Part shown: in pieces, positions 3,762 through 24,201 of the stretch
Layout: each line of letters opens with the position of its first letter
Numbering within the stretch: the stretch's first letter is position 1
NCBI GenBank assembly: GCA_965279745.1
Contig: OZ257262.1
Location: 329,201-361,200 of the forward strand
Source: Mycobacterium sp.
Lineage (GTDB): Bacteria; Actinomycetota; Actinomycetes; Mycobacteriales; Mycobacteriaceae
DNA: 32,000 bases
Direction of reading: 5' to 3'
Program-made: the position numbers and the translations under genes
Notes under the pieces: generated by a model
Told to the model about the DNA's origin: nothing
Databases searched by the model: none
The model's input: the letters and a program-made list of their open reading frames with translations, nothing else

Positions 3762-3798
3762 GCGAGAGCGAAGAGGTCACATTGAGACGGAGCCGCGC

Positions 3799-5172: not shown

Positions 5173-6202
5173 CGCGCACAGTCGCCAGCGCGGCATCGAC
5201 TTGGTCGGGGGTAGTGGCCCACGAGCAAACGAAGCGGACGATGGGTTGTAGTGGGTCCGGTTGGTGTACCGCAAAGCTTTTCGAGAGTTCGTTGTAGGTG
5301 TCCGAGGTTAGGGTGACGAAGACCTCGTTGGCCTCGGTGGGGGCGGCCAGATCGAGCCCGAGCCCAGTGAATCCGGCGCTGAGCCGAGCGGCCATGGCGT
5401 TGGCGTGGCCGGCCAGAGTCAACCACTGACCGTCACCGAAGATGGCCTCAAACTGGGCAGCGACGAACCGCTGCTTGCTGCCCAGGTGACCGATTTGCTT
5501 GTGGACGAAATGGATTCCGTCGAAGAGTTCTGGCCGCCGGATCAGGATCGCCTCGCCGAACAGCATGCCGTTCTTGGTGCCACCGACCGTGACGATGTCC
5601 GCATCACCGATCGCGTCCCTCGGTGTTGTGCCCACTGCCGCAACGGCATTGGCGATCCGTGCTCCGTCGACATGAACCAGCAAGTCGAGCGCATGCGCGT
5701 GGTCGATAAAGTCTGCAATCAGTTGCGGGGGCCAGACACGTCCGTTTTCGGTGGACTGGGTGATGGTGACGATCCGGGGCTGTGAATGGTGTACCTCGCC
5801 GCGCCTCATGGTGACGAGACGGTCGAGGTGAGCAGGGTCGATGAGCCCGTCATCGCTGGGCATCGGGGTGAGTTGGGCGCCGGAGAGACGGACCGGTCCG
5901 CCGGCTTCGTCGATCAGGACGTGCGCGATATCGCTGCAGAGGATCTCGTTCCAGGGCCGGATACCTGAGGACAAGGCGGTGATATTGGCGCCGGTGCCGG
6001 TGAAGGCGAACAAGACGTCGGCGTGCGGGGAGGAAAACGCGTCCTTGATGAGTTTCGCGGCCCGCTCGGTGAAGGGGTCGGAACCGTAGGAGCCGGTCGG
6101 TCCGTCGTTGGCGGCGACGACCGCGTCGATGGCAATTGGGTGGGCAGGGGCGCAGTTGTCCGAGGCGAACGCTGCAGAGGGTGTTCCAGACACGAGGGTC
6201 AT
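5156..6202 (-). CDS. Threonine aldolase / beta-eliminating lyase family PLP-dependent enzyme
   Basis: Fold-type I PLP enzyme with the PLP-lysine motif VTVGGTKNGMLFGEAI and N-terminal FASDN..GSYGSDP. The ORF is open to 6268, but that is 5 nt from the tRNA, so the ATG at 6202 (MTLVSGTPSAAFASDN) is preferred. Its 3' end converges on and overlaps the PmbA-like gene by 17 nt. Confidence 0.8.
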   Translation of the reverse strand: MTLVSGTPSAAFASDNCAPAHPIAIDAVVAANDGPTGSYGSDPFTERAAKLIKDAFSSPHADVLFAFTGTGANITALSSGIRPWNEILCSDIAHVLIDEAGGPVRLSGAQLTPMPSDDGLIDPAHLDRLVTMRRGEVHHSQPRIVTITQSTENGRVWPPQLIADFIDHAHALDLLVHVDGARIANAVAAVGTTPRDAIGDADIVTVGGTKNGMLFGEAILIRRPELFDGIHFVHKQIGHLGSKQRFVAAQFEAIFGDGQWLTLAGHANAMAARLSAGFTGLGLDLAAPTEANEVFVTLTSDTYNELSKSFAVHQPDPLQPIVRFVCSWATTPDQVDAALATVRAIAPD

Positions 6203-6272
6203 GATCCCATTTGGTGGGTTCGCTCCAGTGCATGAGAACAGCGCATGGGAACATTGGTGCCGCGTCACGCAG

Positions 6273-6349
6273 GGGGCGGTAGCTCAGTTGGTTAGAGCCG
6301 CGGACTCATAATCCGTTGGTCGCGGGTTCGAGCCCCGCCCGCCCTACCA
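6273..6349 (+). tRNA. tRNA-Met, anticodon CAU (elongator-like), genomically encoded CCA
   Basis: Folded by hand. Acceptor stem GGGGCGG/CCGCCCT (G1-U72). D arm GCTC-AGTTGGTT-AGAGC. Anticodon stem GCGGA/TCCGT with loop CTCATAA. Variable loop TGGTC. T arm GCGGG-TTCGAGC-CCCGC. Discriminator A, then CCA. It lacks the three G-C pairs at the base of the anticodon stem that mark initiator tRNA. I cannot exclude tRNA-Ile2 (lysidine-modified CAU). Confidence 0.9.
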
Positions 6350-6356
6350 AGCTCTG
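6341..6356. repeat. Left copy of the 16-bp direct repeat GCCCTACCAAGCTCTG flanking the IS481-family element (target-site duplication)
   Basis: An identical 16-mer occurs at 7713-7728, directly abutting both IS ends. It includes the last 9 nt of tRNA-Met. Confidence 0.8.
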
Positions 6357-7712
6357 TGTATGACGTCGGTTGATGCTTGACGTTTCGTCTTCGGGTGATG
6401 CCTGACAGTGTTTCGGCTGATGCTTGACAGTTACTTCGGTTGATTCTTGACACTCCCTTAATGAGGGAGATCAGCGTGGCTGAGCAGAGGTATCAGGCGG
6501 TGTTGGCCGTCATCAGTGATGGGTTGTCGATTTCGCAGGTGGCGAGCAAGGTCGGGGTGTCTCGGCAGACCGTGCATGCCTGGTTGGCCCGGTATGAGGC
6601 TGAGGGTCTGGAAGGGCTGAACGATCGGTCGCATCGGCCAGCGAACTGTCCGCATCAGATGCCCGCCGAGGTGGAGGCCGCGGTCTTGGAGTTGCGCCGG
6701 TCACGCCCGTATTGGGGGCCGCGGCGGCTGGTGTTCGAACTGGCTAAACGCAAGGTGCGACCAGTGCCGTCGGAATCGGCGGTGTATCGGGCATTGGTAC
6801 GAGCCGCCATGATCGATCCGACCTTGCGTGATCGGCGATCCCGTAAGTGGAAACGTTGGGAACGCGGTTCAGCGATGGAGTTGTGGCAGATGGACGTCGT
6901 CGGCGGGTTCCCGCTCGCTGATGGCACCAGCGCCAAAGCGCTGACCGGGATTGATGATCACTCCCGGATGTGCGTGTGCGCCCGGTTAATGAGCGCCGAA
7001 CGCACCCGGGCGGTGTGCGACGGACTGCGCGAGGCGTTGGCTACCTATGGGGCTCCCGAGCAGATCTTGACCGACAACGGAAAGGTGTTTACAGGCCGGT
7101 TCAACCATCCGCCTGTAGAGGTGCTCTTTGATGCGATCTGCCGCGAGCAGGGGATCGAGCATCTGTTGACTCAGCCGCGCAGTCCGACCACGACGGGAAA
7201 GATCGAACGATTTCACCGCAGTCTGCGCGCCGAGTTCCTCAGCGAACAAACAGCTTTCCGCAATCTGAAGACAGCTCAGCAGGCACTCGACGAGTGGGTG
7301 GAGTATTACAACACTGCCCGGCCGCACCAGTCGCTGAGATGGACACTCCCGCTCAACGGTTCACCGCCGGCGGTCCTCCCCAGCGTTCATCGACTCCAAC
7401 TGCGATCTCTACCGACCGCACGGGCGAACACTGGGTCAGCCGCAAGGTCTGCGCCAACGGCATCGTCTGTGTGTCCTGGCAACAGGTTTCAGTCGGGGTT
7501 CACCGGGCCGGAGCTCGCTGCGATGTCCACGTCGATGGTGAGCTGTTGCGTTTCTGGATCGGCGAGGAACTAGTCAAGACCGCCACGCGGACCAGCCACG
7601 GCGAGGTAAGAAATAAACGGGCCGCCCGCACCCGCGAGCAGGCCTAACACAACACAAAGAGTGTCAAGGATCAACCGACGCTGAAACGTCAAGAATCAAC
7701 CGACTCTGAACA
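6357..7712 (+). mobile_element. IS481-family insertion sequence, 1356 bp
   Basis: The ends have the TGT...ACA form. IRL is TGTATGACGTCGGTTGATGCTTGACGTTTC. The reverse complement of IRR is TGTTCAGAGTCGGTTGATTCTTGACGTTTC, and the core GTCGGTTGATnCTTGACGTTTC matches at 21 of 22 positions. It carries a single DDE transposase gene and is flanked by a 16-bp direct repeat. Confidence 0.8.
6461..7647 (+). pseudogene. IS481-family DDE transposase, interrupted by a 1-nt frameshift near 7336-7338
   Basis: Frame A (6440/6461..7573) carries the HTH region (SISQVASKVGVSRQTVHAWLARY) and the integrase core (WQMDVV..DDHSR..LTDNGKVF..TTGKIERFH..YYNTARPHQSL), then turns into nonsense. Frame B (..7647) continues with the expected family C-terminus MDTPAQRF..EHWVSRKVCANGIVCVSWQQVSVGVHRAGARCDVHVDGELLRFWIGEELVKTATRTSHGEVRNKRA. 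There is no slippery heptamer at the junction (tcgctgagatgg). Confidence 0.8.
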
Positions 7713-7728
7713 GCCCTACCAAGCTCTG
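7713..7728. repeat. Right copy of the 16-bp direct repeat GCCCTACCAAGCTCTG
   Basis: Identical to 6341-6356 and immediately follows the IS right end (..tctgaaca). Confidence 0.8.
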
Positions 7729-7754
7729 GTGTATTCAGTGTGTATCGTTGGTGT

Positions 7755-7964
7755 ATGTCGCGAACCAACATTGAAATCGATGACGAGCTCATCGGTCAGG
7801 TGATGCGGCGATTCGGCGTGGCGACCAAGAAGCAGGCTGTTGACCTGGCTCTGCGGCGTCTGGTTGGCGTGCCTTTAACCCGCGACTTTTTGCTGGGTCT
7901 CGAAGGCGTCGGTTGGGACGTGGGGCTTGACGACGTCCGCCGAGAGCTGCCCGGCGAGTTCTGA
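7755..7964 (+). CDS. vapB: Type II antitoxin, VapB family
   Basis: [37 protein letters not shown] is the classic VapB N-terminus. Its stop overlaps the vapC ATG (TGATG). The ATG at 7755 is preferred over the GTG at 7740. Confidence 0.8.
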
Positions 7965-8368
7965 TGATCCTGATCGACACGTCGGCATGGATCGAGTACT
8001 TCCGCGCGACCGGGTCGGCTGCCGCAGTCGAGGTGCGGCGACTCTTGTCGACCGAGGCGGGTCGGGTTGTGATCTGTGAGCCCGTCGCGATGGAGATCTT
8101 GTCGGGTGCGATCGACGATGGACGGTATGCCAAGCTTGAGCAGCTCGTGAACGGGTTACCCTCGCTGAGCGTGGATGACGCTGTCGACTTCCGCACGGCC
8201 GCAACGATCTACCGGACCGCCAGGCGCGCCGGTCAGACGATCCGCAGTGTGAACGACTGCCTGATCGCCGCAGTATCGATTCGCCACGGCGCCAGCGTTG
8301 TTCACCGTGATGCGGACTTTGAAGTGATCGCGGCGATCACAGGTCTGGCCGCAGAATCGTTTTGGTAG
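7964..8368 (+). CDS. vapC: Type II toxin VapC, PIN-domain ribonuclease, 134 aa
   Basis: [47 protein letters not shown] carries the PIN acidic residues in their canonical spacing. It is translationally coupled to vapB. Confidence 0.9.
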   Translation: MILIDTSAWIEYFRATGSAAAVEVRRLLSTEAGRVVICEPVAMEILSGAIDDGRYAKLEQLVNGLPSLSVDDAVDFRTAATIYRTARRAGQTIRSVNDCLIAAVSIRHGASVVHRDADFEVIAAITGLAAESFW

Positions 8369-8381
8369 CGATGTGCAAGTT

Positions 8382-8410
8382 TTGACAGCTGCCCCAGACA
8401 TTGCTGCAAT
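8382..8410 (+). promoter_or_regulatory. Candidate sigma-A-type promoter for the secreted-protein gene
   Basis: TTGACA (8382-8387), a 17-nt spacer, then TGCAAT (8405-8410). It lies about 47 nt upstream of ATG 8457. An AGGGG Shine-Dalgarno sits 7 nt before the ATG. Confidence 0.4.
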
Positions 8411-8456
8411 TGATGCAGGTGCGCCCAGAAGACGCGCCCAGAACAGGGGTTCTGCA

Positions 8457-8885
8457 ATGAGGGTCATCGGTCATGTCACCGCAGTGGCTGCCTTGGTGTG
8501 CGGGCTCGCGGCGGGAACCCCCCTGGCGAACGCTTCGGACCAGGTTCTCGACGGCACCTATGACGTCGTCGGCCCCAGCAGCACCCTGGACACCTGGGTG
8601 ATAACGACCCACTGCGCTGAAGCCGTCGCCGGCTGCCAGGCAGACGTCCACTCGTCGATAGGCAATGGTCAGGCCCACTACCAGGGCGGATCCCTCTGGG
8701 GGATGACGTTCGCAGGCTTTGTGCCGGTCTGCCTCGACAAGAGCGTGACTAAAGGCGCGATGTCCTTTCAATGGAGCGCGAAGACGCTTGAGGGCCAGCT
8801 GGTGAGCGTCCAACGTGGCCCATGCCAGATGACCCGTCCGGGGCAAACCCAGACCCCATTCAAGCTGGTCAAGGTAGACGTTTAG
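8457..8885 (+). CDS. Small secreted hypothetical protein (about 142 aa, Cys-containing)
   Basis: From ATG 8457 it reads MRVIGHVTAVAALVCGLAAGTPLANA|SDQ, a Sec signal peptide with an ANA cleavage motif. The upstream part of ORF 8373.. lacks an SD and looks non-coding. I recognise no family. Confidence 0.7.
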   Translation: MRVIGHVTAVAALVCGLAAGTPLANASDQVLDGTYDVVGPSSTLDTWVITTHCAEAVAGCQADVHSSIGNGQAHYQGGSLWGMTFAGFVPVCLDKSVTKGAMSFQWSAKTLEGQLVSVQRGPCQMTRPGQTQTPFKLVKVDV

Positions 8886-9040
8886 GGCCACTCCGGCAGG
8901 TCCGCGCCATACGGGACAAGCCGCTGGTTATGTGTGAATTCGATACCGGAGAACCTGATCGGATTTGCTGCGCCACCCCGGTCTCGGCCAGCAGACGCTC
9001 CAACTCGGCCAGATCGCGGTTGCTTAACGATGGAGTACTG

Positions 9041-9976
9041 ATGGTTCCCATCTTTGCAGTCGATGTAAGACTTGTAATCGTGATCGCGCGTCCGGCTGCG
9101 TTCGTGGTGGCCCTTCTGACCCTGTTCGGGGTACAGGGTCCGCGCGCAATGGCGAACCCGGGCGATCCCCCCGGCGGTCTGACATTCGGGGGATTGCAAC
9201 GCACATTTCTGGTGCATGCGCCCGCCGGTGTAGACCACCCGAACGGGCTGGTCCTCAATCTGCACGGCGCCGGAATGACGGCAGGGGACCAGGCCGCGCT
9301 GACCAACTACAACGCGGTGGCCGACCAGTTTGGGTTCGTCGTGGCCTATCCGGACGGCATCGACATGAGTTGGGCTGACGGTCGGGGAGCGTCGGTGCCC
9401 GACCGGGACGGCGTCGATGACGTGGGCTTTCTCGCGGCCCTGATCGGTCAGCTGTCCCGCGACTACGGGATAGCGCCGGGCCGGGTGTTCGTCACCGGGA
9501 TGTCGGCCGGTGCGTTCATGGCGACCCGGCTGGCGTGTGAACGGGCCGACTTGGTCTCGGCTATCGCGCCGGTAGCCGGAACGTTGGGTGCGGCGATGCC
9601 GTGTTCCCCGTCAAGACCTGTCTCGGTGCTTCAGATACACGGAACCGCCGATCCTGTTGTGCCCTACAACGGTGGCCCGATGGTCGGCCGCGGCGGAGCC
9701 AGCGACGTGGTGTCGGCACCGGCGATGGCCGAGCGGTGGCGGGCGCTGGACCGTTGCCCGGGTCCATTGGTTCCGGACGGGACTGGTGAGGTAGTCCGGA
9801 TGGCGGCCACAGGGTGTGCGCAAGGCACCGAAGTGGTCTTGGTGCGGATCGACGGGGGTGGGCACACCTGGCCGGCGGGGCGCTTCGCATTGCCGGCGGC
9901 GACGGTCGGCCCGACCAGTTTCGCGATCGACGCCTCACAGGCCGGCGGGCAGTTCTTCGCCTCGCACGCCGGTTGA
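9041..9976 (+). CDS. PHB-depolymerase-family esterase (LpqC-like secreted alpha/beta hydrolase)
   Basis: LVLNLHGAGMT..FVVAYPDG..DGVDDVGFLAALI..RVFVTGMSAGAFMATRLAC (GxSxG nucleophile)..IAPVAGTL..VSVLQIHGTADPVVPY is the hallmark layout of this family. ATG 9041 gives a hydrophobic leader (MVPIFAVDVRLVIVIARPAAFVVALLTLFG). ORF start 8822 overlaps the previous gene, and ATG 8930 remains possible. Confidence 0.85.
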   Translation: MVPIFAVDVRLVIVIARPAAFVVALLTLFGVQGPRAMANPGDPPGGLTFGGLQRTFLVHAPAGVDHPNGLVLNLHGAGMTAGDQAALTNYNAVADQFGFVVAYPDGIDMSWADGRGASVPDRDGVDDVGFLAALIGQLSRDYGIAPGRVFVTGMSAGAFMATRLACERADLVSAIAPVAGTLGAAMPCSPSRPVSVLQIHGTADPVVPYNGGPMVGRGGASDVVSAPAMAERWRALDRCPGPLVPDGTGEVVRMAATGCAQGTEVVLVRIDGGGHTWPAGRFALPAATVGPTSFAIDASQAGGQFFASHAG

Positions 9977-10093
9977 TCACCACAGCTGAGAACCCCGGTG
10001 GGTGATCAGCGATCTCTTTAAGTTAAGGTGCGCTGGGCCAGTGGCGTCTAGACGTCGTTTGCGGCCAAAGGACTTAGAAACCGAAAGGAAAGC

Positions 10094-10519
10094 ATGCGTG
10101 TCGTAGCGTTTGCGCCGTCATTGAGCGCAGTATCGCAAGACGCCGGGGGCGTCACGGTCGAGGGTTTCCCGCTGACGAGCTTCTATGTGGATAGCTTCCC
10201 CGCCCAGGTCACCATCCCCATGGTCGTCGCAGTGTGCACCCTGGGTGGCAGCGATTATGAGCCGAAGAAATACATCATCGCCACCTCGCCCGAGGGCGAG
10301 CGAGTCGGTGCCCTGGAGTTCTCTTGGACGTGGCCCGATAACCCGCCGATCCCGCTCAAGTACCGGGTCTTTGCCCAGTACCTCCCGGTGCGAGTCGAAT
10401 CATCAGGCGTTTACACCATCGGCCTGTACGACAGCCTGGACGCGACCGAGAGTGACAATCTGTTTCCGCTCCCGATATTCAAGAGCAATCCGCTGATGGC
10501 GCCCACGCCGTTCTCGTAG
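10094..10519 (+). CDS. Hypothetical protein, 141 aa
   Basis: Strong RBS (GAAAGGAAAG, then 3 nt, then ATG). The codon bias looks coherent. It lies 37 nt upstream of the methyltransferase gene, so the two are probably an operon. It looks beta-strand-rich and has no signal peptide. I recognise no family. Confidence 0.7.
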   Translation: MRVVAFAPSLSAVSQDAGGVTVEGFPLTSFYVDSFPAQVTIPMVVAVCTLGGSDYEPKKYIIATSPEGERVGALEFSWTWPDNPPIPLKYRVFAQYLPVRVESSGVYTIGLYDSLDATESDNLFPLPIFKSNPLMAPTPFS

Positions 10520-10532
10520 GCCCTCGCCGTAG

Positions 10533-11777
<1,245 letters not shown>

Positions 11778-11821
11778 GGGCGTGACTTAAGGCACTAACG
11801 GGGCCTTAAACAGACGGAAGC

Positions 11822-11879
11822 CGACGACAGACGCTGTCTTCGCGTGAGCAATCGCGCAGGAAGGCAGCGTCTGTCGTCG
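11822..11879 (+). terminator. Stem-loop with a 15-bp perfect stem, candidate (possibly bidirectional) intrinsic terminator
   Basis: CGACGACAGACGCTG (11822-11836) pairs with CAGCGTCTGTCGTCG (11865-11879) across a 28-nt loop that contains its own small stem. It begins 45 nt after the methyltransferase stop. There is no clear U-tract, which is common in mycobacteria. Confidence 0.45.
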
Positions 11880-11915
11880 TTGGGGCTGCATTCCCGGGGT
11901 GTCAGTCGAGCCGCA

Positions 11916-12146
11916 TCATTTTCTCTCGGTGATTTTGACGGCCGTTGAGGCCGAGACTTCACGCAATCGTTCCGCGTGGGTCGGTGTGACCGCGCACGCA
12001 TATTCAGCCTGAAATCGCCGGTCCAAAGCCTGGTGTCCGAAAGACGGCAGTGCCGCTTCAAGGGCCATAGCCGCAGCGTGCCCGCGATGGGTTGTCGAAA
12101 CCAATTGGTTGGCGACACGCGGGTCATGACCCCGATGTGGCGGTTT
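11916..12146 (-). pseudogene. Possible C-terminal remnant of a tyrosine recombinase/integrase (5'-truncated)
   Basis: The minus-strand translation ..THRGHAAAMALEAALPSFGHQALDRRFQAEYACAVTPTHAERL loosely matches the integrase C-terminal pattern (H-x-x-R-H-t-a-A-t-l-a-l-e-a-G ... L-G-H ... Y-s-H-V-t-p). It is degenerate, and this is a motif-level impression only. Confidence 0.3.
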
Positions 12147-12245
12147 GGTTGCTGGCTGGTAGGTTTCCGGGTGGTTTGTTGTGTGGTGTGTGGAATGGGC
12201 TGTGTGGGTGTCTTCAGACATCTGCGTGGTTGTGTTTCTAAAACG

Positions 12246-12274
12246 CTGACACTTGTGGTGTTGGTGTGCATAAT
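12246..12274 (+). promoter_or_regulatory. Near-consensus sigma-A promoter of giant gene copy 1
   Basis: cTGACA (12246-12251), a 17-nt spacer, then cATAAT (12269-12274). The predicted 5' UTR of about 36 nt ends in the strong SD AAGGGGGAG, 5 nt before ATG 12318. Confidence 0.55.
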
Positions 12275-12317
12275 GGGCCGAACCGTGCTGAGAAAGTCCT
12301 GAGAAGGGGGAGTTGTC

Positions 12318-15300
12318 ATGAGTGTTGTTTCTGGTGTTGAGGGTGGTTCGGATTTTGTTGGTTCGGCCAGTTCAGTGCGGGTTGGGCGGGGTGTGGTGGT
12401 GCGTGCTGTGGGGGTTGGTGTGCGTGGTGGGTTGAGGTCTGTGGTGTCGGGTCCTGGGGGTTATGTGGGTCGGGTGGGTGCGTTGGCGGTGGCGTTGGGG
12501 GTGGGTGCTGCGGTGGCGGTGATGCCGGCGGTGGCGTTTGCTGATACGACGGGTTCGGGGGGGGCGTCGGCGTCGGATTCGGGGTCGTCGGGTTCGGTGA
12601 AGGGTGCGCCGGGTCATCGTTCGGGTGGTGCGGGGTCGCGGTCGGGGTCGTCTGCGGGTGGTTCGTCTGCTGGTGGTGTGGGGTCTGAGGGTGTTGTTGA
12701 GGGTGGGGTGTCGGGTTCGTCGGGTGTTGGTGGTGAGTCGGAGGGGTCTTCGGTTGGTGCGGGGTCGGGGGCGGGGTCTGTGTCGGGTGGGGTGAAGTCT
12801 GGTCGTCGGTCGGGGTTGGGTTCGGGTGGTTCGGGTTCGGGTGGTTCGGGGTTTGAGGGTGTGGCGCCGGCGGGTGCGGTGGCGGGTGCGTCGCCGGTGG
12901 TGGTGGGTTCGTCGGGTGTGGGTGGGGTGTCTGTTGTGGTGCCGGAGGTGGGTGTGCCGGTGGTGGATGAGGGTGTGGTGGTTTCGGGTTCTGATGATGT
13001 TGTGGTGGCGCCGGTGTTGTCGGTGGCGCCGCCGGTGGCGGCGGTGCCGTCGGGTGCGGTGTCGGGGTTGGGTGGTGGGTTGTTGTCGTGGCTTGGGTTT
13101 GGTGGTGGGGCTGCGGGTGGTTCGGATGGTTCGGGTGTGGGTGGGCCGTTGGGGTGGGCGTTGTTGGGGTTTGTGCGTCGTGATGGGTCGCGTGGTGGGC
13201 GTGATGTGGCGCCGCCGGCGGCGGGGGTGTCGTCGGGTGAGTCGTCGGGTGGGTTGTGGTCGGGTGCGGGTGCTGCGGTGTCGGGTGTGGGGAGTGTTCC
13301 GTCGGCGGCGTCGGTGGGGTCGTCGGTGGGTGCGGGGGCGAGTGATATTTGGTTGTTTGGGAATGGGACTGCTGAGCATCCTGATGGCGGGATTTTGATT
13401 GGTAATGGGTATTCGTGGACGGGGTATGCGGGGGTGTGCACCAGTGGTGCGTGCAATGGTGGTAATGGTGGGTTGATTGGTTCGGGTGGTGCTGGGTTTG
13501 CGGGTGGTAATGGTGGTTCGGCGGGGTGGTTTGGTTCGGGTGGTGCTGGTGGTGCTGGGACTAATGGTGTTTCTGGTGGTGCTGGTGGTAAGGGTGGTAC
13601 GGGTGGGTTGTTTATTGGTAATGGTGGTAATGGTGGTGCTGGTGGTGCTGCGAGTGCTGGTAATGGTGGTGCGGGTGGTGCTGGTGGGGATACGGGTCTG
13701 ATTTCGTGGGGTGCTGCGGGTAATGGTGGTGCTGGTGGTGTGGGTAGTGGTGGTTTTGTGGGTGGTGTTGGTGGTGCGGGTGGTTCTGCTGGGCTGATTT
13801 CGACGATTAGTTCTGGTGGTGTGGGTGGTGCTGGTGGTGCTGGTGGTACGGGTGGTGCTGGTGGTGCTGGTGGTAATGGTGGTTTGGTGGTTGGTGGTGG
13901 TGGTGCTGGTGGTACGGGTGGGGCGACCACGTTGATTGGTGGTGTGGGTGGTGATGGTGGTGATGGTGGTTCTACGGGGTTGTTGTCGGTGTCGGGTGAT
14001 GGTGGTGCGGGTGGTGCGGGTGGTGCGGGTGGTGCGGGTTTGGCGGGTGTGACGGGGACGTCGCCGGGTGGTGCGGGTGGTGTGGGTACTGCTGGTGGTA
14101 AGGGCGGTGCTGGTGGTGATGGTGGTGCTGGCAGCTTTGTGTTTGGTGCTGGTGGTGCTGGTGGTGCTGGTGGTGCTGGTGGTGTTGGTGGTGTTGGTGG
14201 TACGGGTGCTGCGGGTGCTGGTGCGACGGCTGCGGGTGCTGCTGGTGGTGTTGGTGGTGCTGGTGGTACGGGTGGTGCTGGTGGTGTTGGTGGTGTGGGT
14301 GGTAATGGTGGTGATGGGCGGATTCTGTTCTTTGTTGATTCGTCGGGTGCGGCGGGTGTGGGTGGTAAGGGTGGTTCCGGCGGTGGTGCGGGTGTTGCCG
14401 GTGATGGTGGTGTTGGTGGTGCGGGTAATGCGGGCACGCCTGATGGTGGTGCGGGTGGTGCTGGTGGTAATCCGGGTAAGGCCGGTGTGGGTGGTGCCGG
14501 TGGTGCGGGTGGTTCGGGTAATGGTGGTGGTGGTGCTGGTGCTTCGGGTGCTGCGGGTTCGGCGGCGACCTCGGGGGGTAATGGCGGTAATGGTGGGGCT
14601 GGGTTCAGTGCTGTGGTGGCGGGTGCTGGCGGTAATGGTGGTGCTGGCGGTGCTGGTGGCGCGGTGGGTAATGGCGGTAATGGTGGTGCGGCGGGTGCGG
14701 GTGCTGGGGGTACGGCGGGCACTTCTGGTGTGACGGGCACTGATGGTGGTTCTGGTTTCGCTGGTGGTGTGGGTGGTGCTGGTGGTGCTGGTGGTAGCAC
14801 GTCGGGTAATGGTGGTAATGGTGGTGCGGGTGGTGCCGGTGGTGCTGGTGGTGCGGGTGGTAGTGGTTCTGATGGTGCTGCCGGGGTGGGTTCGGGTGCT
14901 TCGGGTAGTGATGGTGGTGATGGTGGTTCTGGTGGTAAGGGCGGTAAGGGTGGTGCCGGCGGTAACGCGGGTAAGGCGTTGGGGGCTGGTTCGGCTGGGG
15001 TGAATGGCACTGGTGGTGCTGGTGGTACGGGTGGTAGTGCGGGTAATGCGGGTAATGGTGGTACGGGTGCGGCGGGGACGAACATCATCACTCCTGATGG
15101 TGGTGCTGGTGGTAATGGTGGTGAGTTGGGTACTGCGGGTACTGGTGGTGCTGGTGGTGCGGCGGGTACTGGTGGTTCTGGTGGTGCGACCGGTAGTGAT
15201 GGCGGTAATGGCGGGTCGGGTTCTGGTGGTAATGGTGGTGCGGGTGGTGCCGGCTGGAATTCCACGGTGACCAATGTGGCTGGCGGTAATGGTGGTGCGG

Positions 15301-16967
15301 GTGGTAACGCGGGCACGGTCGGTAATGGTGGTGCTGGTGGTGCGGGTGGTAACGGGTCGACCGGGACTGCTGGTGGTGCTGGTGGTGCGGGTGTTGGTGG
15401 CGGTAATGGTGGTGCGGGGTCCACCGCGGGTAATGGTGGTGCTGGTGGTGCTGGTGGCACGTTGGTGGGTAATGGTGGTGCTGGTGGTGTTGGTGGTGTT
15501 GGTGGTGCGGGTGGTAATGGTGGTGCTGGTGGTGATGGTGCTACTGGTGGTGCTGGTGTGGCTGGTGGTACTGGTGGTGATGGTGGTACCGGGGGTAGTG
15601 GTGCTAAGGGTGGCCAGGGCGGTGCGGGTGGTGCTGCGGGTGGTAAGGGCAGTGTCGGACAGAACGGTAATGGTGGTGCTGGTGGCGCCGGGGGTGATGC
15701 GGGTAACGCCGGCAATGGCGGTAATGGTGGTGCCGGGACTGCGTTGAACCCGGATGGTGGTGCTGGTGGTAATGGCGGCAATGTCGGGTTCGCTGGTACT
15801 GGTGGTGCTGGTGGTGCGGCGGGTAGTGGTGGCACTGGTGGGGTGAGTGGGGTTACCGGTGGTGATGGTGGTTCTGCTGGTGGCGGTAATGGCGGTAATG
15901 GTGGTGCGGGGTGGAACAGCCTTACTGCGTCGAAGGCTGGCGGTAAGGGTGGTGCTGGTGGTGCTGGTGGTTTCGTCGGTAATGGTGGTGTTGGTGGTTC
16001 TGGCGGTAACGGTGCGAGTGGTCAGGCCGGTGTTGATGGTGGTGTCGGGGTTGATGGGACCAGTGGTGGTAATGCCAGCGCTGGTGGTGCCGGTGGTGCG
16101 GGCGGTGCTGGTGGGGCGATAGCGGGTTCTGGTGGTGCTGGTGGTTCTGGCGGTAATGGTGGTTCTGGTGGTGCGGGCGGTAATGGTGGTAACGGTGCTG
16201 CTGGTGGTGCTGGTTTGGCTGGTGGGACTGGTGGTAATGGCGGTACGGGTGGTAACGGTGCTGCTGGTGGTGCTGGTGGTGCTGGTGGTAAGGCGGTCGG
16301 TATTGGTTCTGCCGGTAGTGATGGCAGTGGTGGTGCGGGTGGCACGGGTGGTAATGCCGGTAATGCCGGTAATGGTGGTACCGGTGGTGCGGGTGTGTCG
16401 TCGGTGACTCCGAATGGTGGTGCTGGTGGTAATGGTGGTGAGCGTGGCGCGGCGGGTGCTGGCGCTGCCGGTGGTGCCGCGGGTGGTCCTGGTGGTACGA
16501 CGGGTGCTAGTGGTGTTGGTGGTGCTGCGGCGTCGGGTGGCAATGGTGGTAATGGTGGTGCTGGCTGGAACAGCAATGATCCGTCGAAGGCTGGCGGTAA
16601 GGGTGGTGCTGGTGGTAACGCGGGTTCGGTCGGTGATGGTGGTGCTGGTGGTGCCGGCGGTAATGGTGCTTCGGGTGCGGTAGGGGCTAATGCCGGTCCG
16701 GGTGGCAATGGTGGTCTTGGTGGTGCGGGCAGTGTTGGTGGTGCCGGTGGTGCTGGCGGTAACGGCGGGTCGTCGAAGGGTGACGGCGGTGCTGGTGGTG
16801 TCGGTGGTGTGGGTGGTGCCGGCGGTAACGGCGGTAACGGCGGTAACGGCGCTACCGGGGTTGGTGGTGGTGCGTCGGTGGTGATGGCGGTAATGGTGGC
16901 ACTGGTGGTGCTGGTGCTGCTGGTGGTAAGGGCGGCACGCACGGGTTCGCGCTCGGTGGTGGTGTGA
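12318..16967 (+). CDS. Giant secreted PGRS-like glycine-rich repeat protein, 5' segment (ORF ends artificially because of a 1-nt deletion at 16876)
   Basis: Supported by the promoter, the SD and ATG 12318. The signal peptide is ..[25 protein letters not shown]|D (cleavage after residue 75). It is followed by a Ser/Gly/Val-rich linker of about 260 aa, then the PGRS-type onset [43 protein letters not shown] and GGAGGxGG repeats. The last 31 residues (..[17 protein letters not shown]..) are out-of-frame read-through. Confidence 0.8.
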
Positions 16968-19900
16968 ATGGTGCTGATGGCAATGGTGGTACTGGTGGCA
17001 CGGGTGGTAATGCTGGTGATGCCGGTAATGGTGGTGCTGGTGCTGGTGGTACTTCGGGTTCGCCGGATGGTGGTACCGGTGGTGATGGTGGTGATCGGGG
17101 TACTGCCGGTGTTGGTGGTGCCGGGGGTGCTGCTGGAGGGACTGCGGGTTCTGCCGGTGTGACAGGCGCTGATGGTTCTGGGGCGTCGGGTGGTAATGGT
17201 GGTGCTGGTGGTGCCGGTTGGACCAGCACGAGTGGTGCTACCGCTGGTGGTAATGGTGGTGCTGGTGGTAACGCGGGTACCTATGGCAATGGTGGTGCTG
17301 GCGGTGCTGGTGGTACTGGTGCTGGGGGTACTGCGGGGATTGCGGGGGCGACTGCTGCTGCCGGTGGTGCCGGTAATAACGGCGGCACGGGTGGTAATGG
17401 CAGTGCTGGTGGTGCTGGTGGTGCTGGTGGTAAGGGCGGTTCGGTCGCCGGTAATGGTGGTGCTGGTGGTGTTGGTGGTGCCGGTGGCTCGGGTGGTACC
17501 GGTGGCGCCGGGTCTGATGGTGGGCTCGGGGTGATCACGATCAACGCTGGTGCTGGTGGTAACGGTGGTACGGGTGGTACTGGTGGTGCTGGTGCTTCTG
17601 GTGGTGCTGGTGGTGCTGGTGGTGCTGCGGGTGGTGTTGGTTCCTCGGGTGCGGATGCTGATGGTGGTGCTGGTGGTTCCGGTGGTAATGCCGGTAATGC
17701 CGGTAATGGTGGTACGGGTGCTCAGGGTGATTTGAACTTGGGTCCTGCTAATGGTGGTGCTGGCGGTAATGGTGGTACGTGGGGCACTGCGGGTGCTGGT
17801 GCTGCTGGCGGTGCCGCGGGTGGGGCGGGTGCTAGCGCGGGGTCGAGTGGTTCTTCGGGTACGGCGGCTACTGCTGGTGGTAACGGTGGTGATGGTGGTG
17901 CCGGCTGGAACAGCACGAACCCGGCGTTCGGTGGCGGTAATGGTGGTGCCGGCGGTAATGCCGGTTCGTTGGGTACTGGTGGTAATGGTGGTACTGGTGG
18001 TCAAGGGTTCACTGGTGTTACCGGTGCGGTAGGGGCCACTGGTGGTGGTGCTGGTGGTAACGGTGGTACCGGTACCGCGGGTGGTAACGGTGGTGCTGGC
18101 GGTAATGGTGGTGTGTTCGGTGGTAACGCCGGTAATGGTGGTAATGCCGGTAATGGTGGTACCGGTGGTGCTGGCGGTAATGGTGGTACCGGTGCTTCCG
18201 GTGGTGCTGGTGGTACTGCCGGTAATGGTGGTAGTGGTGGCGCCGGGGGCAGTGGTGGTGCTGGTGGTAAGGCGTTGGTGGCTGGGTTCACCCATGGCAA
18301 TGGCGGTAATGGTGCTACCGGTGGTACTGGGGGTAACGCCGGTAATGGTGGTACTGGTGGTGGTGGTACTGCGGGCACACCTAATGGTGGTGATGGTGGT
18401 GCTGGTGGTACGCGTGGTGGTGCTGGTGCTTCGGGTGCTGGTGGTGCCGCGGGTGGTACGGGTGCGTCGGCGGGGTCGGCGGGGACCTCGGGTGCCGCGG
18501 GGACCACTGGCGGTAATGGTGGTGCTGGTGGTGCGGGCTGGAACAGCGACTCGAGTAGCGCTGCTGGTGGTGCCGGCGGTAAGGGTGGTGCCGCGGGTGC
18601 TATCGGTGATGGTGGTGCTGGTGGTGCTGGTGGTAATGGTTTTGCTGGTGCTGCTGGTGGTAACGGCTCTACTGGCGGGTACGGGGTTTCTGGTGGAGAC
18701 GCCACGTCTAATGGTGGTTGGGGCACTGCTGGTGGTGCTGGTGGTGCTGGTGGTACGGGCGGGACGACCTCGGGTAAGGGTGGTTCCGGTGGTGCTGGTG
18801 GTGTTGGTGGTGTTGGTGGTACCGGCGGTAACGGCGGTAACGGTGGTACCGGGACGACCGCGGGCAGTGGTTCCGGCGGTAATGGTGGTACCGGCAGTGC
18901 TGGTGGTACCGGTGGTACCGGTGGTGCTGGGGGTGCTGCGGGTAAGGCTGGCGGCACGGGTGGTACGACCGGTGCTAATGGCAGTGGCGGTAATGGTGGT
19001 ACTGGTGGTGCTGCGGGTAACGCCGGTAATGGTGGTGCTGGTGCTGGCGGGACGGCGGGCACACCGAATGGTGGCGATGGTGGTGAGGGCGGTAACCGTG
19101 GTGCCGCCGGTAATGGTGGTACCGGGGGCTTGGCTGGTGGCACGACCGGCGGTGCGGCGGCGGGGACCACGGGGAGCACTGGTGGTGTCGGGGCGTTGGG
19201 TGCCGGCGGTAATGGTGGTTCTGGTGGTGACGGCTTTGATGGGTCGGGTACCACGGGCGCTAACGGCGGTAATGGCGGTAAGGGTGGTGCGGCTGGTTCG
19301 TTCGGTAATGGTGGTGCCGGTGGTAAGGGCGGTAATGGTGGCGGGGGGACCGCGGGGACTGCGGGGACCACGGGCAGCACTGATGGCGTTACTGGTCAGG
19401 CTGGTGGTGTTGGTGGTGCTGGTGGTGCTGGTGGTAGGGGCGGTTTGGTCCAGGGTGATGGTGGTGCCGGCGGTAAGGGCGGTAACGGTGCTACCGGTGG
19501 TACCGGTGGTGACGGCCATGATGGTGCGGCCGGGGTTACCGGGGTAAATAACGGTGTTGGTGGTGCTGGTGGTACTGGCGGTAATGGTGGTGCTGGTGGT
19601 GCCGGTGGTAAGGGTGGTAAGGGTGGTACGGCGGCGTCGGGTACTACCGGTGCTAATGGCAGTGGCGGTAACGGTGCTACTGGTGGTAACGCGGGTAACG
19701 CCGGTAACGGTGGGGCCGGTGCTACCGGGACGGTGGCTAACCCGAATGGCGGTAATGGTGGTACCGGCGGTACTCGGGGTACTGCTGGTGGTGCTGGTGC
19801 TGCTGGTGCTTCGGGGACCACTCCGGGTGGCGCGTCGGGGTCGACCGGGACTGCCGGGACTACTGGTGCTGGGGCCACGTTCGGTGGTAACGGCGGTAAT

Positions 19901-20000
19901 GGTGGTAACGGCTACAACGACCTGACCACCGGTGCCAGCGCCGGTAACGGCGGTAACGGTGGTAACGCCGGGTTGATCGGTAACGGCGGTAATGGTGGTA
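14600..20000 (+). repeat. Array of at least 8 higher-order modules of about 630-700 bp (about 220 aa) inside the giant gene
   Basis: An anchor motif GG(N/D)GG(A/N)G(W/F/Y)(N/T/D)S recurs near 14603, 15255, 15912, 16566, 17219, 17906, 18539, 19236 and 19914. Each is preceded by [10 protein letters not shown]..(T/N)P(D/N)GGxGGxGGxxGxAG and followed by ..[26 protein letters not shown]. Confidence 0.75.
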
Positions 20001-22975
20001 ACGGTGGCGCGGCGGATGCCCAGACCGGTACCAGCACCGGGGTGATCAGGACTGGCGGTAATGGTGGTGCTGGTGGTGCTGGTGGTGCCACGTCGGGTAA
20101 CGGTGGTGCCGGTGGTGCTGGTGGCAACGCGCATACCCGCGATTCGGGTTCGCGGGCGATCGGTGGTGCTGGCGGTGCTGGTGGCGCGTCGATCGGGGCC
20201 ACGGGCTCGAGCAGTGCCGCGGGTAATGGTGGTGCCGGTGGTAACGGGAACTCTGAACAGGATCACGGCTTCGGTGGTACCGGTGGTGCTGGCGGGTCGG
20301 TGGCGTTCGCTGACGGTAATGGCGGTAATGGTGGTGCCGGTGGTGGTGCTACGGGTGCCGGTATTGCTGCTGGTGGTGCTGGTGGTGCTGGTGGTGCTGT
20401 CGGTTCTGGTGTCGGTAACGGCGGTAATGGTGGTGCTGGTGGTGGCGCCTCTGGTGACACGTTCGTCAGCTCGACCGGTGGTGCTGGTGGTGCCGGTGGT
20501 ACCGGCGGTGCTGGTGGTGGTGATGGTGGTGCTGGCGCGGTCGGTGGTGACGCGACCTCGGTCAATACCATTGCTACCGGTGGTGCTGGTGGTAAGGGCG
20601 GATTCGCGGCGGGCACGGTCGGTAACGGTGGTGCTGGTGGTGCCGGTGGTAGCGGTGCGGCCGGGGCCTCTGGTGATACCGCCACGGGCGGTCAGGGTGG
20701 TGCCGGTGGTGGCGCGTCTGCCGGTAACGGTGGTGCTGGTGGTGCCGGTGGCGGCGCCTCAGTCGGCGCGACGGGCTTCGCTGCCTTTGGTGGTGCCGGC
20801 GGTGCCGGTGGTGCTGGTGGCGGTGTCGGTAACGGTGGTGCCGGCGGTAAGGGCGGCAACGCACAAGGCATCGGATTCGTTGGAACCTTCGATGCGCAGG
20901 CCGGTGTCGGTGGTATCGGTGGGGCCGCGGGGGTGACCGGTACCGGTGGCCAGGGCGGCGACGGCGGTGACGCCGTGTCCACAGGCACCGGCATCGTCAA
21001 CACCGGCGCTGTTGGTGGTAACGCCGGTAAGGGCGGCACCGGCGGATCCACCAGTGGCAACGGCGGCGCCGGCGGCAAGGGCGGCGCAGCCACCGCGGCG
21101 GATAGCTTCGCCAAGGGCGGTGCGGCCGGTAATGGTGGTAACGCTGTCAACGCCGGCAACGGTGGTGTCGGCGGTCGCGGCGGCGACGCCACGATGACAG
21201 GCGCCGGTTCCACGGCTAACGGTGGTGTTGGTGGTCAAGGTGGTGCGGCGGGCAGCCTCAGCGGTAACGGCGGTGCTGGTGGCCGCGGCGGCGACGCGTC
21301 CGCGACCGGGGCAGGTTCGACCGCCACCGGTGGTGCCGGTGGTACTGGTGCTAACGCCGCCGTCGAAGGTGCCGGTGCTGGTGGCGCCGGCGGTGACGCC
21401 ACCTCAGCGGTCGGCAATGCTCGCGGTGGTGTTGGTGGTAAGGGTGGTGACGGTGCGCTCGGCACCGCAGGTACCACCGGCGGAGTCGGGGGTGCGGGCA
21501 CGACCGGTGCGGCTGGTGGGGCTGGTGGCAGCGCTACCGCAGGCGGCACGGGTAGCGCAATCGGCGGTATCGGCGGCACCGGCGGTGCCGGTGGTGGCGG
21601 TGGGCTCGGCGGCAATGGCAGTGCCGGGACCACCGGTGCTGCAGGCAATACCGCTGGCGCTGGTGGCACCGCTGGTAACGGTGGTAGCGGTGGTGCCGGT
21701 GGAGTTGCAACCACCAGCGGTACCGGGACCGCGGTCGGCGGCAAGGGTGGGCTCGCCGGTGCCGGTGGTACAGGCGGTAAAGGCGGAGTCGGCGGCACCG
21801 GCGGAACCGGGGGTGCCACAGGCGGTGCGGGCGGTGCTGGTGGTGTCGGCGGCAACGCCGGCATCGGTGGTGCCGGTGGCGCCGCAGTCGCTACCGGCGT
21901 CGGAACAATAGCTATCGGCGGAGAAGGCGGCGGTGCTGGCGCGCAAGGCGCCGGTGGCGTTGGTGGTACCGGTGGTGTTGGTGGTACCGGGGCCGCGCTG
22001 GGCGCCGGGGGCAAGGGCGGCAAGGGCGGCGCCGGCGGTAACAACGGCAACGGAGGTGTTGGTGGTGTTGGTGGCACCGGGACCTCTAGCGACGGCAATG
22101 CGATCGGTGGTACTGGCGGCAATATCGCCGTTGCTTCGGTTGCTGCTGCGGCGGGTGGCAAGGGTGGTGCTGGTGGCGCCACCGGTGCCGGTGGCGTGAC
22201 CGGCGGCAACGGCGGCGACGGGGGCAACGGCGGCAAGGCCGGTACAGGTTTTGTCGGTGGGACCGGCGGCAGCGCCTTCTCTAGCGGAACAAACGCTTCT
22301 GCGGTCGGCGGCGTCGGTGGGTCGACCATCAGTTCGACTACGGGTGGAGCAGGTGGTGCTGGAGGTGCGGCCGCGGGTGGTGGTGGAACCACCGGCGCGA
22401 CGGGCGGCACCGGTAGTGCCGGTATCGGTGGTGCTGGCGGCAACGGCGGTAACGCGACCTCCACCAACGGAGCCGCCTTGGGCGGTAACGGCAACATTGG
22501 AGGCGATGCTGGCAGCGGTACTGGTGGTGTTGCGGGGACGGCTGGTAATGGCGGTAGCGCCACGGCCGGCGGAACCAATGCCGGAGCCACTGGTGGGAAG
22601 GGCGGCGTCGGCGGCTCAGGCGCTCCTGCTAACGCGTTCGGTGCTCAGGGTGGCATTGGTGGCAGTGCGACTTCCACCAATGGATTCGCTGTGGGCGGTA
22701 CCGGTGGTCGCGGTGGCGATACATCCAGTGTGATCGGGGGTACCGGTGGTAAGGGCGGCGACGCCGTGGCTGGCGGAACCAACTCTCCGGCCACCGGTGG
22801 TGCCGGCGGTGCCGGCGGCAACGCCACCGTGGCTGGCGGTACGGGCGGTAACGGCGGTAACGGCGGCGACGCCTCGTCGGCCGCCGGAATCCCGACCGGC
22901 GGCAACGGCGGCGGCGGCGGCACTGGTATCGCCCCCGGGGTCAACGGCACCCCAGGCACCCACGGCAACCCCTAA
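16964..22975 (+). CDS. 3' segment of the same giant glycine-rich gene (a continuation, not an independent gene)
   Basis: The GTG at 16964 is an internal Val codon in copy 2, where the frame runs straight through (..[42 protein letters not shown]..). There is no RBS. The same repeat architecture continues. The C-terminal part of about 900 aa switches to GGxGGxGGDA/S-type repeats. The stop at 22973-22975 is followed by a strong hairpin. Confidence 0.8.
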
Positions 22976-23590: not shown

Positions 23591-24201
23591 CCACTTTTGA
23601 CCTGTCCCGGCTTCCCGGACGGCTGGTGTTGGGTGTTCACGCGGCCGTGTTGGTGGTCGTGTGGTGTCTTTCGTAGTCGATAGGGCTGCAGTAGTCCAGA
23701 GCGCTGTGACGGCGGACGGGTTCGATCTGCAGGGAGCCAAAGAACGATTCGATCATCGCGTTGTCAAAGGCGGAGGCCACCTGGCCCATAGAAGCCAGGA
23801 GGCCTGCCTCGCGGAGCCGGTGGCCGAACAGCCAACTGGTACTGGGTTCCGCGGTCGGAGTGCACGATCGTGCCGACGGGTTTGCGGCGTAGTCGGGCCA
23901 TGTCGAGAGCGTCGGCGAACAGTTCGGTCCGCAAGTGATCGGCGATCGACCAGCCGACCACCCGGCGGTAGACCGTAGGTCTGCCGTGAGCCGGTATGGA
24001 TCGCCACGACGGTGTTGGCTAACTCGGCGTCCACACGATCGCTGGTCCTTGGCAACCCGAGCGATCGGCTTCTCCCGCAGCCGGGCCAACTCCACCGCAC
24101 GACGGCGAAACTCCTCCGAATAAGCAGCGGTCATCGTTTCTCTGACTCCTTCCGTTGAGACGATCATCGCCTCAACCGCGGTGTCTGGGAAAGTGGGAAC
24201 A
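23586..24201 (-). mobile_element. Internally deleted IS3-family element (616 bp) that retains both terminal inverted repeats
   Basis: The termini TGTTCCCACTTT (23586-23597) and AAAGTGGGAACA (24190-24201) form a perfect 12-bp inverted repeat. The [10 protein letters not shown] and ATG 24134 open the orfA N-terminus MTAAYSEEFRRRAVELARLREKPIARVAKD. It is then fused, through deletions and frame changes, to OrfB pieces RVDAELANTVVAIHTGSRQTYG, VVGWSIADHLRTELFADALDMA..VGTIVHSDRGTQY and ..MGQVASAFDNAMIESFFGSLQIE..RRHSALDYCSPIDYE. No flanking target duplication is seen. Confidence 0.65.

Follow-up and report, generated by a model that had tools for sequence, protein, structure and literature searches.

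A One-Base Poly-G Length Difference between Two Copies of a Giant PGRS-Like Mycobacterial Gene: Assembly Indel or Phase-Variable Switch?

Introduction

Surface-protein genes of Neisseria, Haemophilus and Campylobacter carry 5' poly-G or poly-C tracts that undergo slipped-strand changes of length. The tracts of such classical contingency loci are typically longer than the run considered here, are conserved among strains and are over-represented in the genome. Homopolymer phase variation is also already well documented in mycobacteria, and the mechanism itself is not new. In the M. tuberculosis complex, the tracts in glpK (7C), ppe13, PE-PGRS15 and ESX-1-associated loci show length heterogeneity and homoplasy over thousands of isolates, and reversion has been demonstrated (PMC10334774, 10.1101/717272). 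Mycobacteria lack canonical mismatch repair and their G:C runs of 7-8 nt vary at high frequency; the glpK 8C tract reverts to 7C at about 1e-2, and 74% of the ORF homopolymers of at least 7 bases in M. tuberculosis were found frameshifted among 5,604 genomes (10.1101/717272, PMC10334774). Homopolymers are, on the other hand, a common site of sequencing error: one study (PMC8812927) describes the residual errors of long-read assemblies as mostly errors of homopolymer length, often left in repeats after short-read polishing.

The locus described here lies in a 32-kb window (the whole stretch of DNA that was analysed, 32,000 nt) and contains two copies of a giant glycine-rich gene whose 5' poly-G tracts differ by one base. 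It resembles the tracts of the M. tuberculosis complex in being a G:C run of the same 7-9 base range within an ORF, in that gain or loss of one base toggles the reading frame, and in its predicted product, which would fall in the same class of surface or secreted Gly-rich proteins. It differs from them in that the observation amounts to a single base by which two paralogues of one assembly differ. Conservation and enrichment of the tract are both lacking, and the copy with the in-frame length is disrupted at another site. With the classical contingency loci it shares the position of the homopolymer, just after the signal peptide of a gene for an exported protein (export being predicted here), and a frame, open or closed past the tract, that is set by tract length modulo 3, whereas the greater length, conservation and over-representation of those tracts do not hold here.

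The Duplicated Gene and Its Two Lesions

The elements of the locus are as follows.

12136-19559, plus strand: direct repeat, copy 1 (period 12,440 bp), 99.84% identical to 24576-32000
24576-32000, plus strand: direct repeat, copy 2; the repeat extends beyond the window end
12246-12274, plus strand: sigma-70-like promoter of copy 1, CTGACA-17-CATAAT, predicted from sequence
24685-24713, plus strand: the same sigma-70-like promoter, retained in copy 2
12303-12312, plus strand: Shine-Dalgarno sequence GAAGGGGGAG
12318-12542, plus strand: long signal peptide (n-region of about 50 aa, h-region, predicted cleavage at AFA/D)
12557-12564, plus strand: G8 tract of copy 1, codons S80-G81-G82-A83, in-frame length (sequence and simulation)
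24996-25004, plus strand: G9 tract of copy 2, a +1 frameshift relative to copy 1 (sequence and comparison of the copies)
12318-16967, plus strand: 5' ORF of copy 1, 1,549 aa, the last 30 residues aberrant after a frameshift
16874-16877, plus strand: site of C (16876, copy 1) versus CC (29315-29316, copy 2), which breaks the Gly-rich frame of copy 1
16964-22975, plus strand: 3' ORF of copy 1, 2,003 aa, continuing the same gene in the -1 frame
24757-25128, plus strand: truncated ORF of copy 2, 123 aa
24962-32000, plus strand: Gly-rich body frame of copy 2, open to the window end
23637-24482, minus strand: degenerate remnant of an IS3-family transposase, within the spacer that separates the gene copies

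In copy 1 the tract reads tcG GGG GGG Gcg (S80-G81-G82-A83), S80 being five residues 3' of the predicted cleavage site AFA75/D76, and in copy 2 direct reading gives nine G residues. The two tracts are the only homopolymers of at least 7 bases in the window and, as in a contingency locus, they are placed inside the 5' coding region (codons 80-83). Simulation of other tract lengths left the frame open with G5, G8 and G11, led to a stop at about codon 123-125 with G6, G9 and G12, and to a stop at about codon 94-95 with G7 and G10, so that a change of one base from G8 (simulated G9 or G7) ends translation within 12-41 codons of the tract. The ORF left in copy 2 consists of 82 native and 41 aberrant residues before the stop at 25126-25128, and the Gly-rich frame behind G9 stays open from 24962 to the window end for 2,346 codons, continuous across the CC site. 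The initial annotation, made from the sequence alone, had claimed that the copies differ as G8 and G9, that the tract length sets the frame, and that in copy 2 41 aberrant residues and a stop uncouple the 82 N-terminal residues from several kb of open Gly-rich frame; all of this agrees with the direct reading, the ORF coordinates and the simulated lengths.

The same annotation had the frame of copy 1 running on into the Gly-rich body, which is true past G8 and ceases to be true at 16876. At this position copy 1 has gcgtCggtgg and copy 2 has gcgtCCggtgg, and the single C shifts copy 1 into an aberrant tail that stops at 16965-16967, the remainder of the gene (16964-22975) being in a different frame from the 5' ORF. 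As sequenced, the full 3,552-aa product is thus made from neither copy: the G8 copy stops at 16965-16967 and the G9 copy at 25126-25128. When one C is restored in copy 1, 12318-22975 becomes a single ORF of 3,552 aa, which needs the combination of G8 and CC, and each copy carries one lesion. The two 1-bp indels, separated by 4.3 kb of perfect identity, are the only differences between the copies in 7,242 bp of coding repeat, with no substitutions. Upstream of the coding region the copies diverge, at 12280 and in a 12-bp patch (12231-12242) just 5' of the predicted promoter of copy 1. The hydrophobic tail that follows the frameshift of copy 1 was considered as a real membrane anchor and rejected: it is GGT GGT misread one base off, as GTG GTG.

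The Protein Product

The product is predicted to be a giant PGRS-like protein with a Sec signal and a polyglycine-II fold, from a Mycolicibacterium-like organism. The 1,549-aa ORF contains, in order, the signal peptide, a disordered Ser/Gly linker, conserved motifs and PGRS-like repeats. The signal peptide claimed at the outset is borne out as a conserved Sec-type one, its motif (h-region and AFA/D site) being conserved across the homologues of the family, with a helix predicted at residues 53-66, suggesting that the protein is exported through Sec. Glycine makes up 46.7% of the protein, with GGAGGNGG repeats. In the AlphaFold2 model, residues 345-520 have a pLDDT above 90 and neither helix nor strand, and the best matches of this region are the polyproline/polyglycine-II bundle antifreeze proteins 7jjv (E = 4e-4) and 3bog. 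Both hallmarks of a PGRS domain, the Gly-Gly-Ala/Gly-Gly-Asn repeats and the polyglycine-II sandwich, are therefore found here, in the repeats and in the model, respectively.

Repeats of the GGAGGNGG type are common to this protein, to PE_PGRS proteins and to the PGRS-domain proteins described in M. smegmatis and Mycolicibacterium (PMC9436101, PMC11939664), and the fold proposed for the PGRS 'sails' is of the same polyglycine-II type as the model of residues 345-520. In contrast to PE_PGRS proteins, a PE domain (PF00934) is missing, no Pfam or NCBIfam family being matched in the N-terminal 394-501 aa, and the N-terminus instead consists of a long signal peptide of Sec type, after which comes a separate conserved module. 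With 3,552 aa it is also far larger than a typical PE_PGRS protein, and its codon use is T3-rich (GGT) and not GGC.

Chance and Conservation of the Tract

Three G8 matches were observed in the window, against 21 +/- 8 in its dinucleotide shuffles, which makes such runs rarer than base composition predicts. Synonymous-codon shuffles of the gene yielded 0.94 runs of at least eight G per gene (P of at least one, 0.60), and the N-terminal codon usage gave P = 0.17 for a run of this length within the first 100 codons. The G8 run is thus no more than chance, expected from amino-acid and codon composition. None of the 9 homologous loci examined has a homopolymer at the equivalent site, where they encode GSAGS, GSSGS, GSPGS or GSGG with mixed codons. 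The tract is therefore neither conserved as a tract nor over-represented, as one kept by selection would be.

Among the matches listed in the contig scan, the relatives showed 33-82% identity over partial matches, and the best match of the protein search had 58% identity over 35% of the query. The exact-protein look-up returned no identical proteins for five ORFs of the window, and a pattern of the tract flanks with a variable gap had no match in JGI metagenomes. Interruptions are also seen in family members from short-read metagenome assemblies: frameshifts in L009 and L003, and a stop in L006.

A Third Frameshift in an IS481 Transposase

The region is IS-rich, adjoins a tRNA-Met and contains an IS481 element besides the IS3 remnant. 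The IS481 transposase carries a third 1-bp frameshift, ORF 6440-7573 continuing in 7294-7647. The repaired protein covers positions 1-284 of the 284 of NCBIfam NF033577 (309 bits) and the unrepaired one positions 1-281 (300.6 bits), and the GC3 frame switches at about 7320. The site is placed only to about 7333-7337, because the closest IS481 copies are at most 79% identical and partial. A search of PDB sequences with the repaired transposase gave no match. An assignment of the missing base (possibly within CTGGAG) to a methylation-motif basecalling error was dropped, as the base cannot be pinned.

Origin of the Single-Base Differences

The likeliest single explanation of the G8/G9 difference, to which we give a probability of about one half, is an error of the assembly consensus, and a sequencing error is at least as likely as a genetic switch; the caveat in the initial annotation that the homopolymer might reflect a sequencing error was an apt one. 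On this account the poly-G run would be an incidental by-product of Ser-Gly-Gly-Ala coded as TCG GGG GGG GCG, in a duplicated giant gene whose 5' part is rich in GGG, rather than an evolved switch. G8/G9 would be an uncorrected single-base indel of a long-read or hybrid assembly, as would the C/CC difference that breaks copy 1, and both genes of the real genome would be intact at 3,552 aa and would read G8 and CC. Such errors would survive polishing in repeated DNA, where short reads have no unique placement, and a repeat of at least 7.4 kb with 99.8% identity at a distance of 12.4 kb is probably resolvable by long reads only. Several observations argue for consensus errors. The copies differ by single-base indels and by no substitutions over 7,242 bp; C versus CC is not slippage-prone and yet disrupts the copy first taken as intact; restoring that C gives an uninterrupted 3,552-aa ORF; the third frameshift is in another repeat-class element, the IS481 transposase; and the single-copy genes in 1-12,135 all keep one frame. 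The differences resemble the residual long-read indels of PMC8812927 in that they are single-base changes of length, that one falls in a homopolymer, and that they stay within repeats while the unique genes are clean; the likeness is a pattern match and not a demonstration. The depletion of G8, its agreement with the synonymous shuffles and the 0/9 homologous loci speak against a designed switch. On the other side, the error is deduced from the pattern of differences, and a real slip from G8 to G9 is the likeliest first true difference between young duplicates, because mycobacteria lack canonical mismatch repair and G:C runs of 7-8 nt are highly variable in them. IS copies are, moreover, often real pseudogenes and the nearby IS3 remnant shows real decay, the interruptions in L009, L003 and L006 suggest that real disruption may be common, and HiFi or well-polished data would make an error at C/CC unlikely.

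If the differences are real, they may have no selected function, a possibility that we regard as tentative: replication slippage would have turned G8 into G9 in copy 2 and an independent deletion would have removed the C from copy 1, both copies being young pseudogenes of a redundant, costly giant gene, and copy 2 could revert by chance, its tract being intrinsically unstable. The frequency of homopolymer indels in mycobacteria without mismatch repair, the interrupted homologues in other assemblies, the IS-rich surroundings beside tRNA-Met (IS481 and the IS3 remnant) and a tract neither conserved nor enriched are all consistent with it. However, the absence of substitutions in 7.2 kb implies that the copies were duplicated or homogenised very recently, with little time for an indel outside a homopolymer, such as C/CC, to arise, and it would be a coincidence if three independent 1-bp lesions all fell within repeated DNA. 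It seems unlikely that selection maintains the 5' poly-G as a slipped-strand ON/OFF switch of a surface-exposed PGRS-type protein and that copy 2, caught in phase OFF, needs just one slip from G9 to G8 to give the sole full-length product. The tract does lie five codons past a conserved signal-peptide cleavage site, no other run in the 10.6-kb gene reaches 7 bases, both copies have kept an intact promoter and Shine-Dalgarno sequence, copy 2 stays open past the tract for at least 2,346 codons, the ON state requires a length of 3n+2, and homopolymer phase variation, PE/PPE genes included, is documented in the M. tuberculosis complex (PMC10334774). Yet the tract is missing at the equivalent site in 9/9 homologues, its occurrence fits the synonymous-shuffle expectation, G8 is short for a dedicated switch, and the copy that has the ON length is disrupted farther along. 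The classic contingency-locus layout proposed in the initial annotation is thus not sustained, given the frameshift at 16876, the 0/9 homologues, the composition-expected run and the indel-only differences. Somewhat less probable still is the specific case of two real lesions with copy 2 as a phase-OFF allele, so that G9 to G8 would turn on the only 3,552-aa form. Copy 1 would then constitutively make a truncated product of 1,549 aa, recombination within the tandem pair would offer another way back to an intact gene, and a PGRS-type surface protein would have a contingency locus beyond the pathogenic mycobacteria.

The complementary lesions could also form a reservoir repaired by recombination, since 4.3 kb of perfect identity lie between them: an intact gene would be regained by a crossover or gene conversion anywhere from 12565 to 16875, or such an event would reduce the duplication to one intact copy. 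The substitution-free coding sequence, next to the diverged upstream positions (12231-12242, 12280), suggests ongoing gene conversion, but conversion frequent enough to erase substitutions should erase the indels too, and this purely geometric possibility, in which both lesions must be real, appears very improbable. Most improbable of all would be expression of copy 2 by recoding, through transcriptional slippage or ribosomal frameshifting on G9. The frame past G9 is fully open and long homopolymers can support RNA-polymerase slippage, but the slippage sites that are known consist of A/T runs, some 9 bases or longer, G:C hybrids slip poorly, and the C/CC lesion is left unexplained.

Should an assembly error be the cause, the right annotation for both copies would be an intact gene of 3,552 aa, and frameshifts of one base in large repeats of long-read assemblies, when they come without read support, ought not to be taken for pseudogenes or switches. 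Should the length difference be real and variable, homopolymer phase variation would extend beyond the genes of the M. tuberculosis complex and reach a giant PGRS-type protein, predicted to be exported by Sec, in a rapid-grower-like mycobacterium from the environment, hinting at stochastic switching of surface 'sail' proteins outside pathogens.

Other Features of the Window

A plasmid origin of the region was considered and rejected: plasmid records were matched by the tRNA-Met only. The long antisense ORFs (e.g., 24755-31960, minus strand, 2,401 aa) were likewise discarded as genes; they are Thr/Arg/Pro-rich mirror images of the GGN repeats.

One indel in each copy

The giant Gly-rich gene begins at 12318 (copy 1) and 24757 (copy 2), about 170 bp inside each copy of a direct repeat (12136-19559 versus 24576-32000, 99.84% identity, period 12,440 bp) whose second copy is cut off by the window end. 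Its main features are:

12557-12564, G8 tract, copy 1 (direct sequence reading)
24996-25004, G9 tract, copy 2 (direct sequence reading)
12318-16967 and 16964-22975, the two gene halves of copy 1, both part of one 3,552-aa gene

These tracts are the only homopolymers of at least 7 bases in the window. The copy 1 run spans tcG GGG GGG Gcg (S80-G81-G82-A83), and S80 lies five residues past the predicted signal-peptidase site (AFA75|D76). Tract length sets the reading frame: in simulated tracts, only G5, G8 and G11 leave it open, G6, G9 and G12 lead to a stop near codon 123-125, and G7 and G10 to one near codon 94-95. The extra G of copy 2 yields a 123-aa ORF (24757-25128) of 82 native and 41 aberrant residues, and the Gly-rich frame behind it has no stop between 24962 and the window end (2,346 codons). 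The initial annotation was correct in all this, namely the two tract lengths, their position after the signal peptide, their effect on the frame and the several kb left open behind G9. It also took the G8 frame of copy 1 to run on intact, and missed a second indel, C at 16876 in copy 1 (gcgtCggtgg) against CC at 29315-29316 in copy 2 (gcgtCCggtgg; 16874-16877 versus 29314-29317). With its single C, copy 1 leaves the GGxGG frame and, after aberrant residues, stops at 16965-16967; ORF 16964-22975 (2,003 aa) is the same gene continued in the -1 frame, and adding one C gives a single 3,552-aa ORF (12318-22975). Because copy 1 combines G8 with the defective C and copy 2 combines G9 with the correct CC, neither can give the complete protein in this assembly.

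Past 12280, base-by-base alignment of about 7.2 kb finds these two indels as the only differences and no substitutions, and the lesions flank 4.3 kb of perfect identity on opposite sides. The upstream 170 bp, in contrast, carry a 12-bp divergent patch (12231-12242) and one substitution at 12280, so the coding region is of very recent origin or has been homogenised through gene conversion; the contrast suggests either that conversion has acted on the coding region alone or that the two copies are regulated differently. The patch (24671-24681 in copy 2) lies directly upstream of the -35 hexamer, and the single-base difference (12280 versus 24719) is near the predicted transcription start. Both copies have a strong promoter-like site, CTGACA-17-CATAAT (12246-12274 and 24685-24713), and retain the Shine-Dalgarno sequence GAAGGGGGAG.

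A PE-less, PGRS-like protein

The Gly-rich protein has no match in Pfam or NCBIfam. Among the matches listed, its family comes mostly from Mycobacteriaceae metagenome bins, with 31-58% identity in alignments that take in most of the N-terminal query; intact relatives reach ~1,800-1,900 aa. Family members share a variable n-region of ~50 aa, a conserved long Sec-type signal segment, a disordered Ser/Gly/Pro linker, two helices (LLSWLG and PLxWAxLxxxRR(D/E)) and, further on, a motif ending in ...C...C.GGNGG (two Cys), followed by GGAGGNGG-type repeats. In an AlphaFold2 model of residues 1-520, everything up to about residue 340 is disordered except one signal helix and a pair of short ones, and residues 345-520 have pLDDT above 90 without helix or strand; the best PDB matches of the model, 7jjv and 3bog, are springtail and snow-flea antifreeze polyproline/polyglycine-II bundles. 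Residues 345-520 are confidently modelled as a polyglycine-II bundle like that of the springtail proteins, a predicted fold shared with PGRS domains, for which such a bundle has been proposed (PMC9436101). Because of the conserved signal, the lack of a Pfam or NCBIfam match and the predicted PGRS-type fold, the product is classed, from sequence and model, as a putative Sec-signal, PE-less, PGRS-like giant protein, probably exported given its conserved signal peptide. Such proteins form an uncharacterised family; for M. smegmatis and Mycolicibacterium, the literature describes PGRS-domain proteins whose PE N-termini are doubtful (PMC11939664).

At third positions the gene (12318-22975) has 53.5% T, against ~15% in neighbouring genes; 73% of the glycines in the body are encoded by GGT, and G and C account for 48% and 18.5% of the coding strand. 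Such T3-rich usage departs strongly from that of the host and limits the length of G runs in the repeat body. A foreign source of the gene could account for it, as could selection acting against slippage or secondary structure.

Genomic neighbourhood

The flanking genes, which encode TldD/PmbA, ABC permeases, VapC and a SAM methyltransferase, assign the window to a Mycolicibacterium/Mycobacterium-like organism; TldD is matched best by metagenomic proteins (89-92% identity) and by Mycobacterium sp. NBC_00419 (89%). Two landmarks of the region with the duplicated gene are:

6273-6349, tRNA-Met
23637-24482, minus strand, IS3 remnant in the spacer between the gene copies

After the tRNA, from 6440 to at least 24576, come IS481, the VapC toxin gene, small secreted proteins, an esterase, a methyltransferase, the duplicated giant gene and the IS3 remnant, with GC3 below that of the TldD/PmbA core region, and the arrangement resembles a genomic island that entered at the tRNA. 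The IS481-family transposase (6440-7647) is split by a one-base frameshift at ~7333-7337, where ORF 6440-7573, reading ...ARPHQSL, continues as EMDTPAQRF... in ORF 7294-7647, with a GC3 frame switch at ~7320; once repaired, it matches NF033577 end to end (309 bits, versus 300.6 unrepaired).

The tract and chance expectation

The tract is no more than chance would give. Three G8 matches occur in the window, against 21 +/- 8 expected from dinucleotide shuffles, and synonymous-codon shuffles that kept the protein and its codon usage gave 0.94 runs of at least eight G per gene (P(>=1) = 0.60). GGG usage is 36% in the first 400 codons versus 7% in the body, and with the former usage the chance of such a run within the first 100 codons is 0.17. 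None of nine homologous loci (0/9) has a homopolymer at the equivalent site, which reads GSAGS, GSSGS, GSPGS, GSNSS or GSGG in mixed codons (e.g., TCC GGC GGC, TCG GGC GGT). Being neither above shuffle expectation nor present in these loci, the tract shows no sign of selective maintenance.

Interruptions occur in three of the nine loci, which come from short-read metagenome assemblies: frameshifts within Gly-rich repeats in L009 (~1730) and L003 (~11950-12040), and an in-frame stop in L006 (~7125). Five database homologues (P0007, P0009, P0010, P0016 and P0021) end in aberrant out-of-frame tails. Either members of the family often decay in nature or their repeats have been misassembled.

Assembly error or biology

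An assembly indel error is given a probability of about 0.5 as the source of the G8/G9 difference. Every difference inside the coding repeat is a single-base indel, C/CC lies where slippage is not favoured, and the frameshift in IS481, another repeat-class element, is the third 1-bp lesion in such DNA of the window, while each single-copy gene in 1-12,135 keeps to one frame. Moreover, in a coding region so young or homogenised, a genuine indel outside a homopolymer would have had little time to arise. A long-read assembly is implied by two copies of at least 7.4 kb that are 99.8% identical and 12.4 kb apart, and residual long-read errors are mostly of homopolymer length and tend to outlast short-read polishing in repeats (PMC8812927). 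Real but incidental slippage, leaving a revertible young pseudogene, is a possible though less probable source, to which the interrupted homologous loci would also conform unless they are misassembled. Pseudogenes of IS elements are frequent, and the spacer contains an IS3 remnant. Canonical mismatch repair is missing from mycobacteria, whose G:C runs of 7-8 bases do switch: glpK reverts from 8C to 7C at ~1e-2, and 74% of ORF homopolymers of at least 7 bases carry frameshifts across 5,604 M. tuberculosis genomes (10.1101/717272), while phase variation at homopolymer tracts, ppe13 and PE-PGRS15 included, is documented at scale (PMC10334774).

Homopolymer phase variation, the kind of mechanism proposed by the initial annotation, is already known in mycobacteria, and a G8/G9 run in such a host is physically unstable. 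Whatever the source of the length difference, the findings speak against an evolved switch here, since the tract is neither conserved nor enriched and the supposed 'ON' copy is broken downstream, and a selected contingency switch is unlikely. Were G9 real, copy 2 would be expected to revert now and then to full length, a reading that is itself rather improbable. Recombination between the complementary lesions, which would restore an intact gene, is very unlikely, and recoding on the G9 run more so still.

Antisense reading frames

Long ORFs, Thr/Arg/Pro-rich and up to 2,401 aa, lie opposite the gene:

24755-31960, minus strand, antisense ORF
12614-15835, minus strand, antisense ORF
16022-20266, minus strand, antisense ORF

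They were rejected as genes because their composition mirrors that of the GGN repeats, but gene callers could be misled by them.
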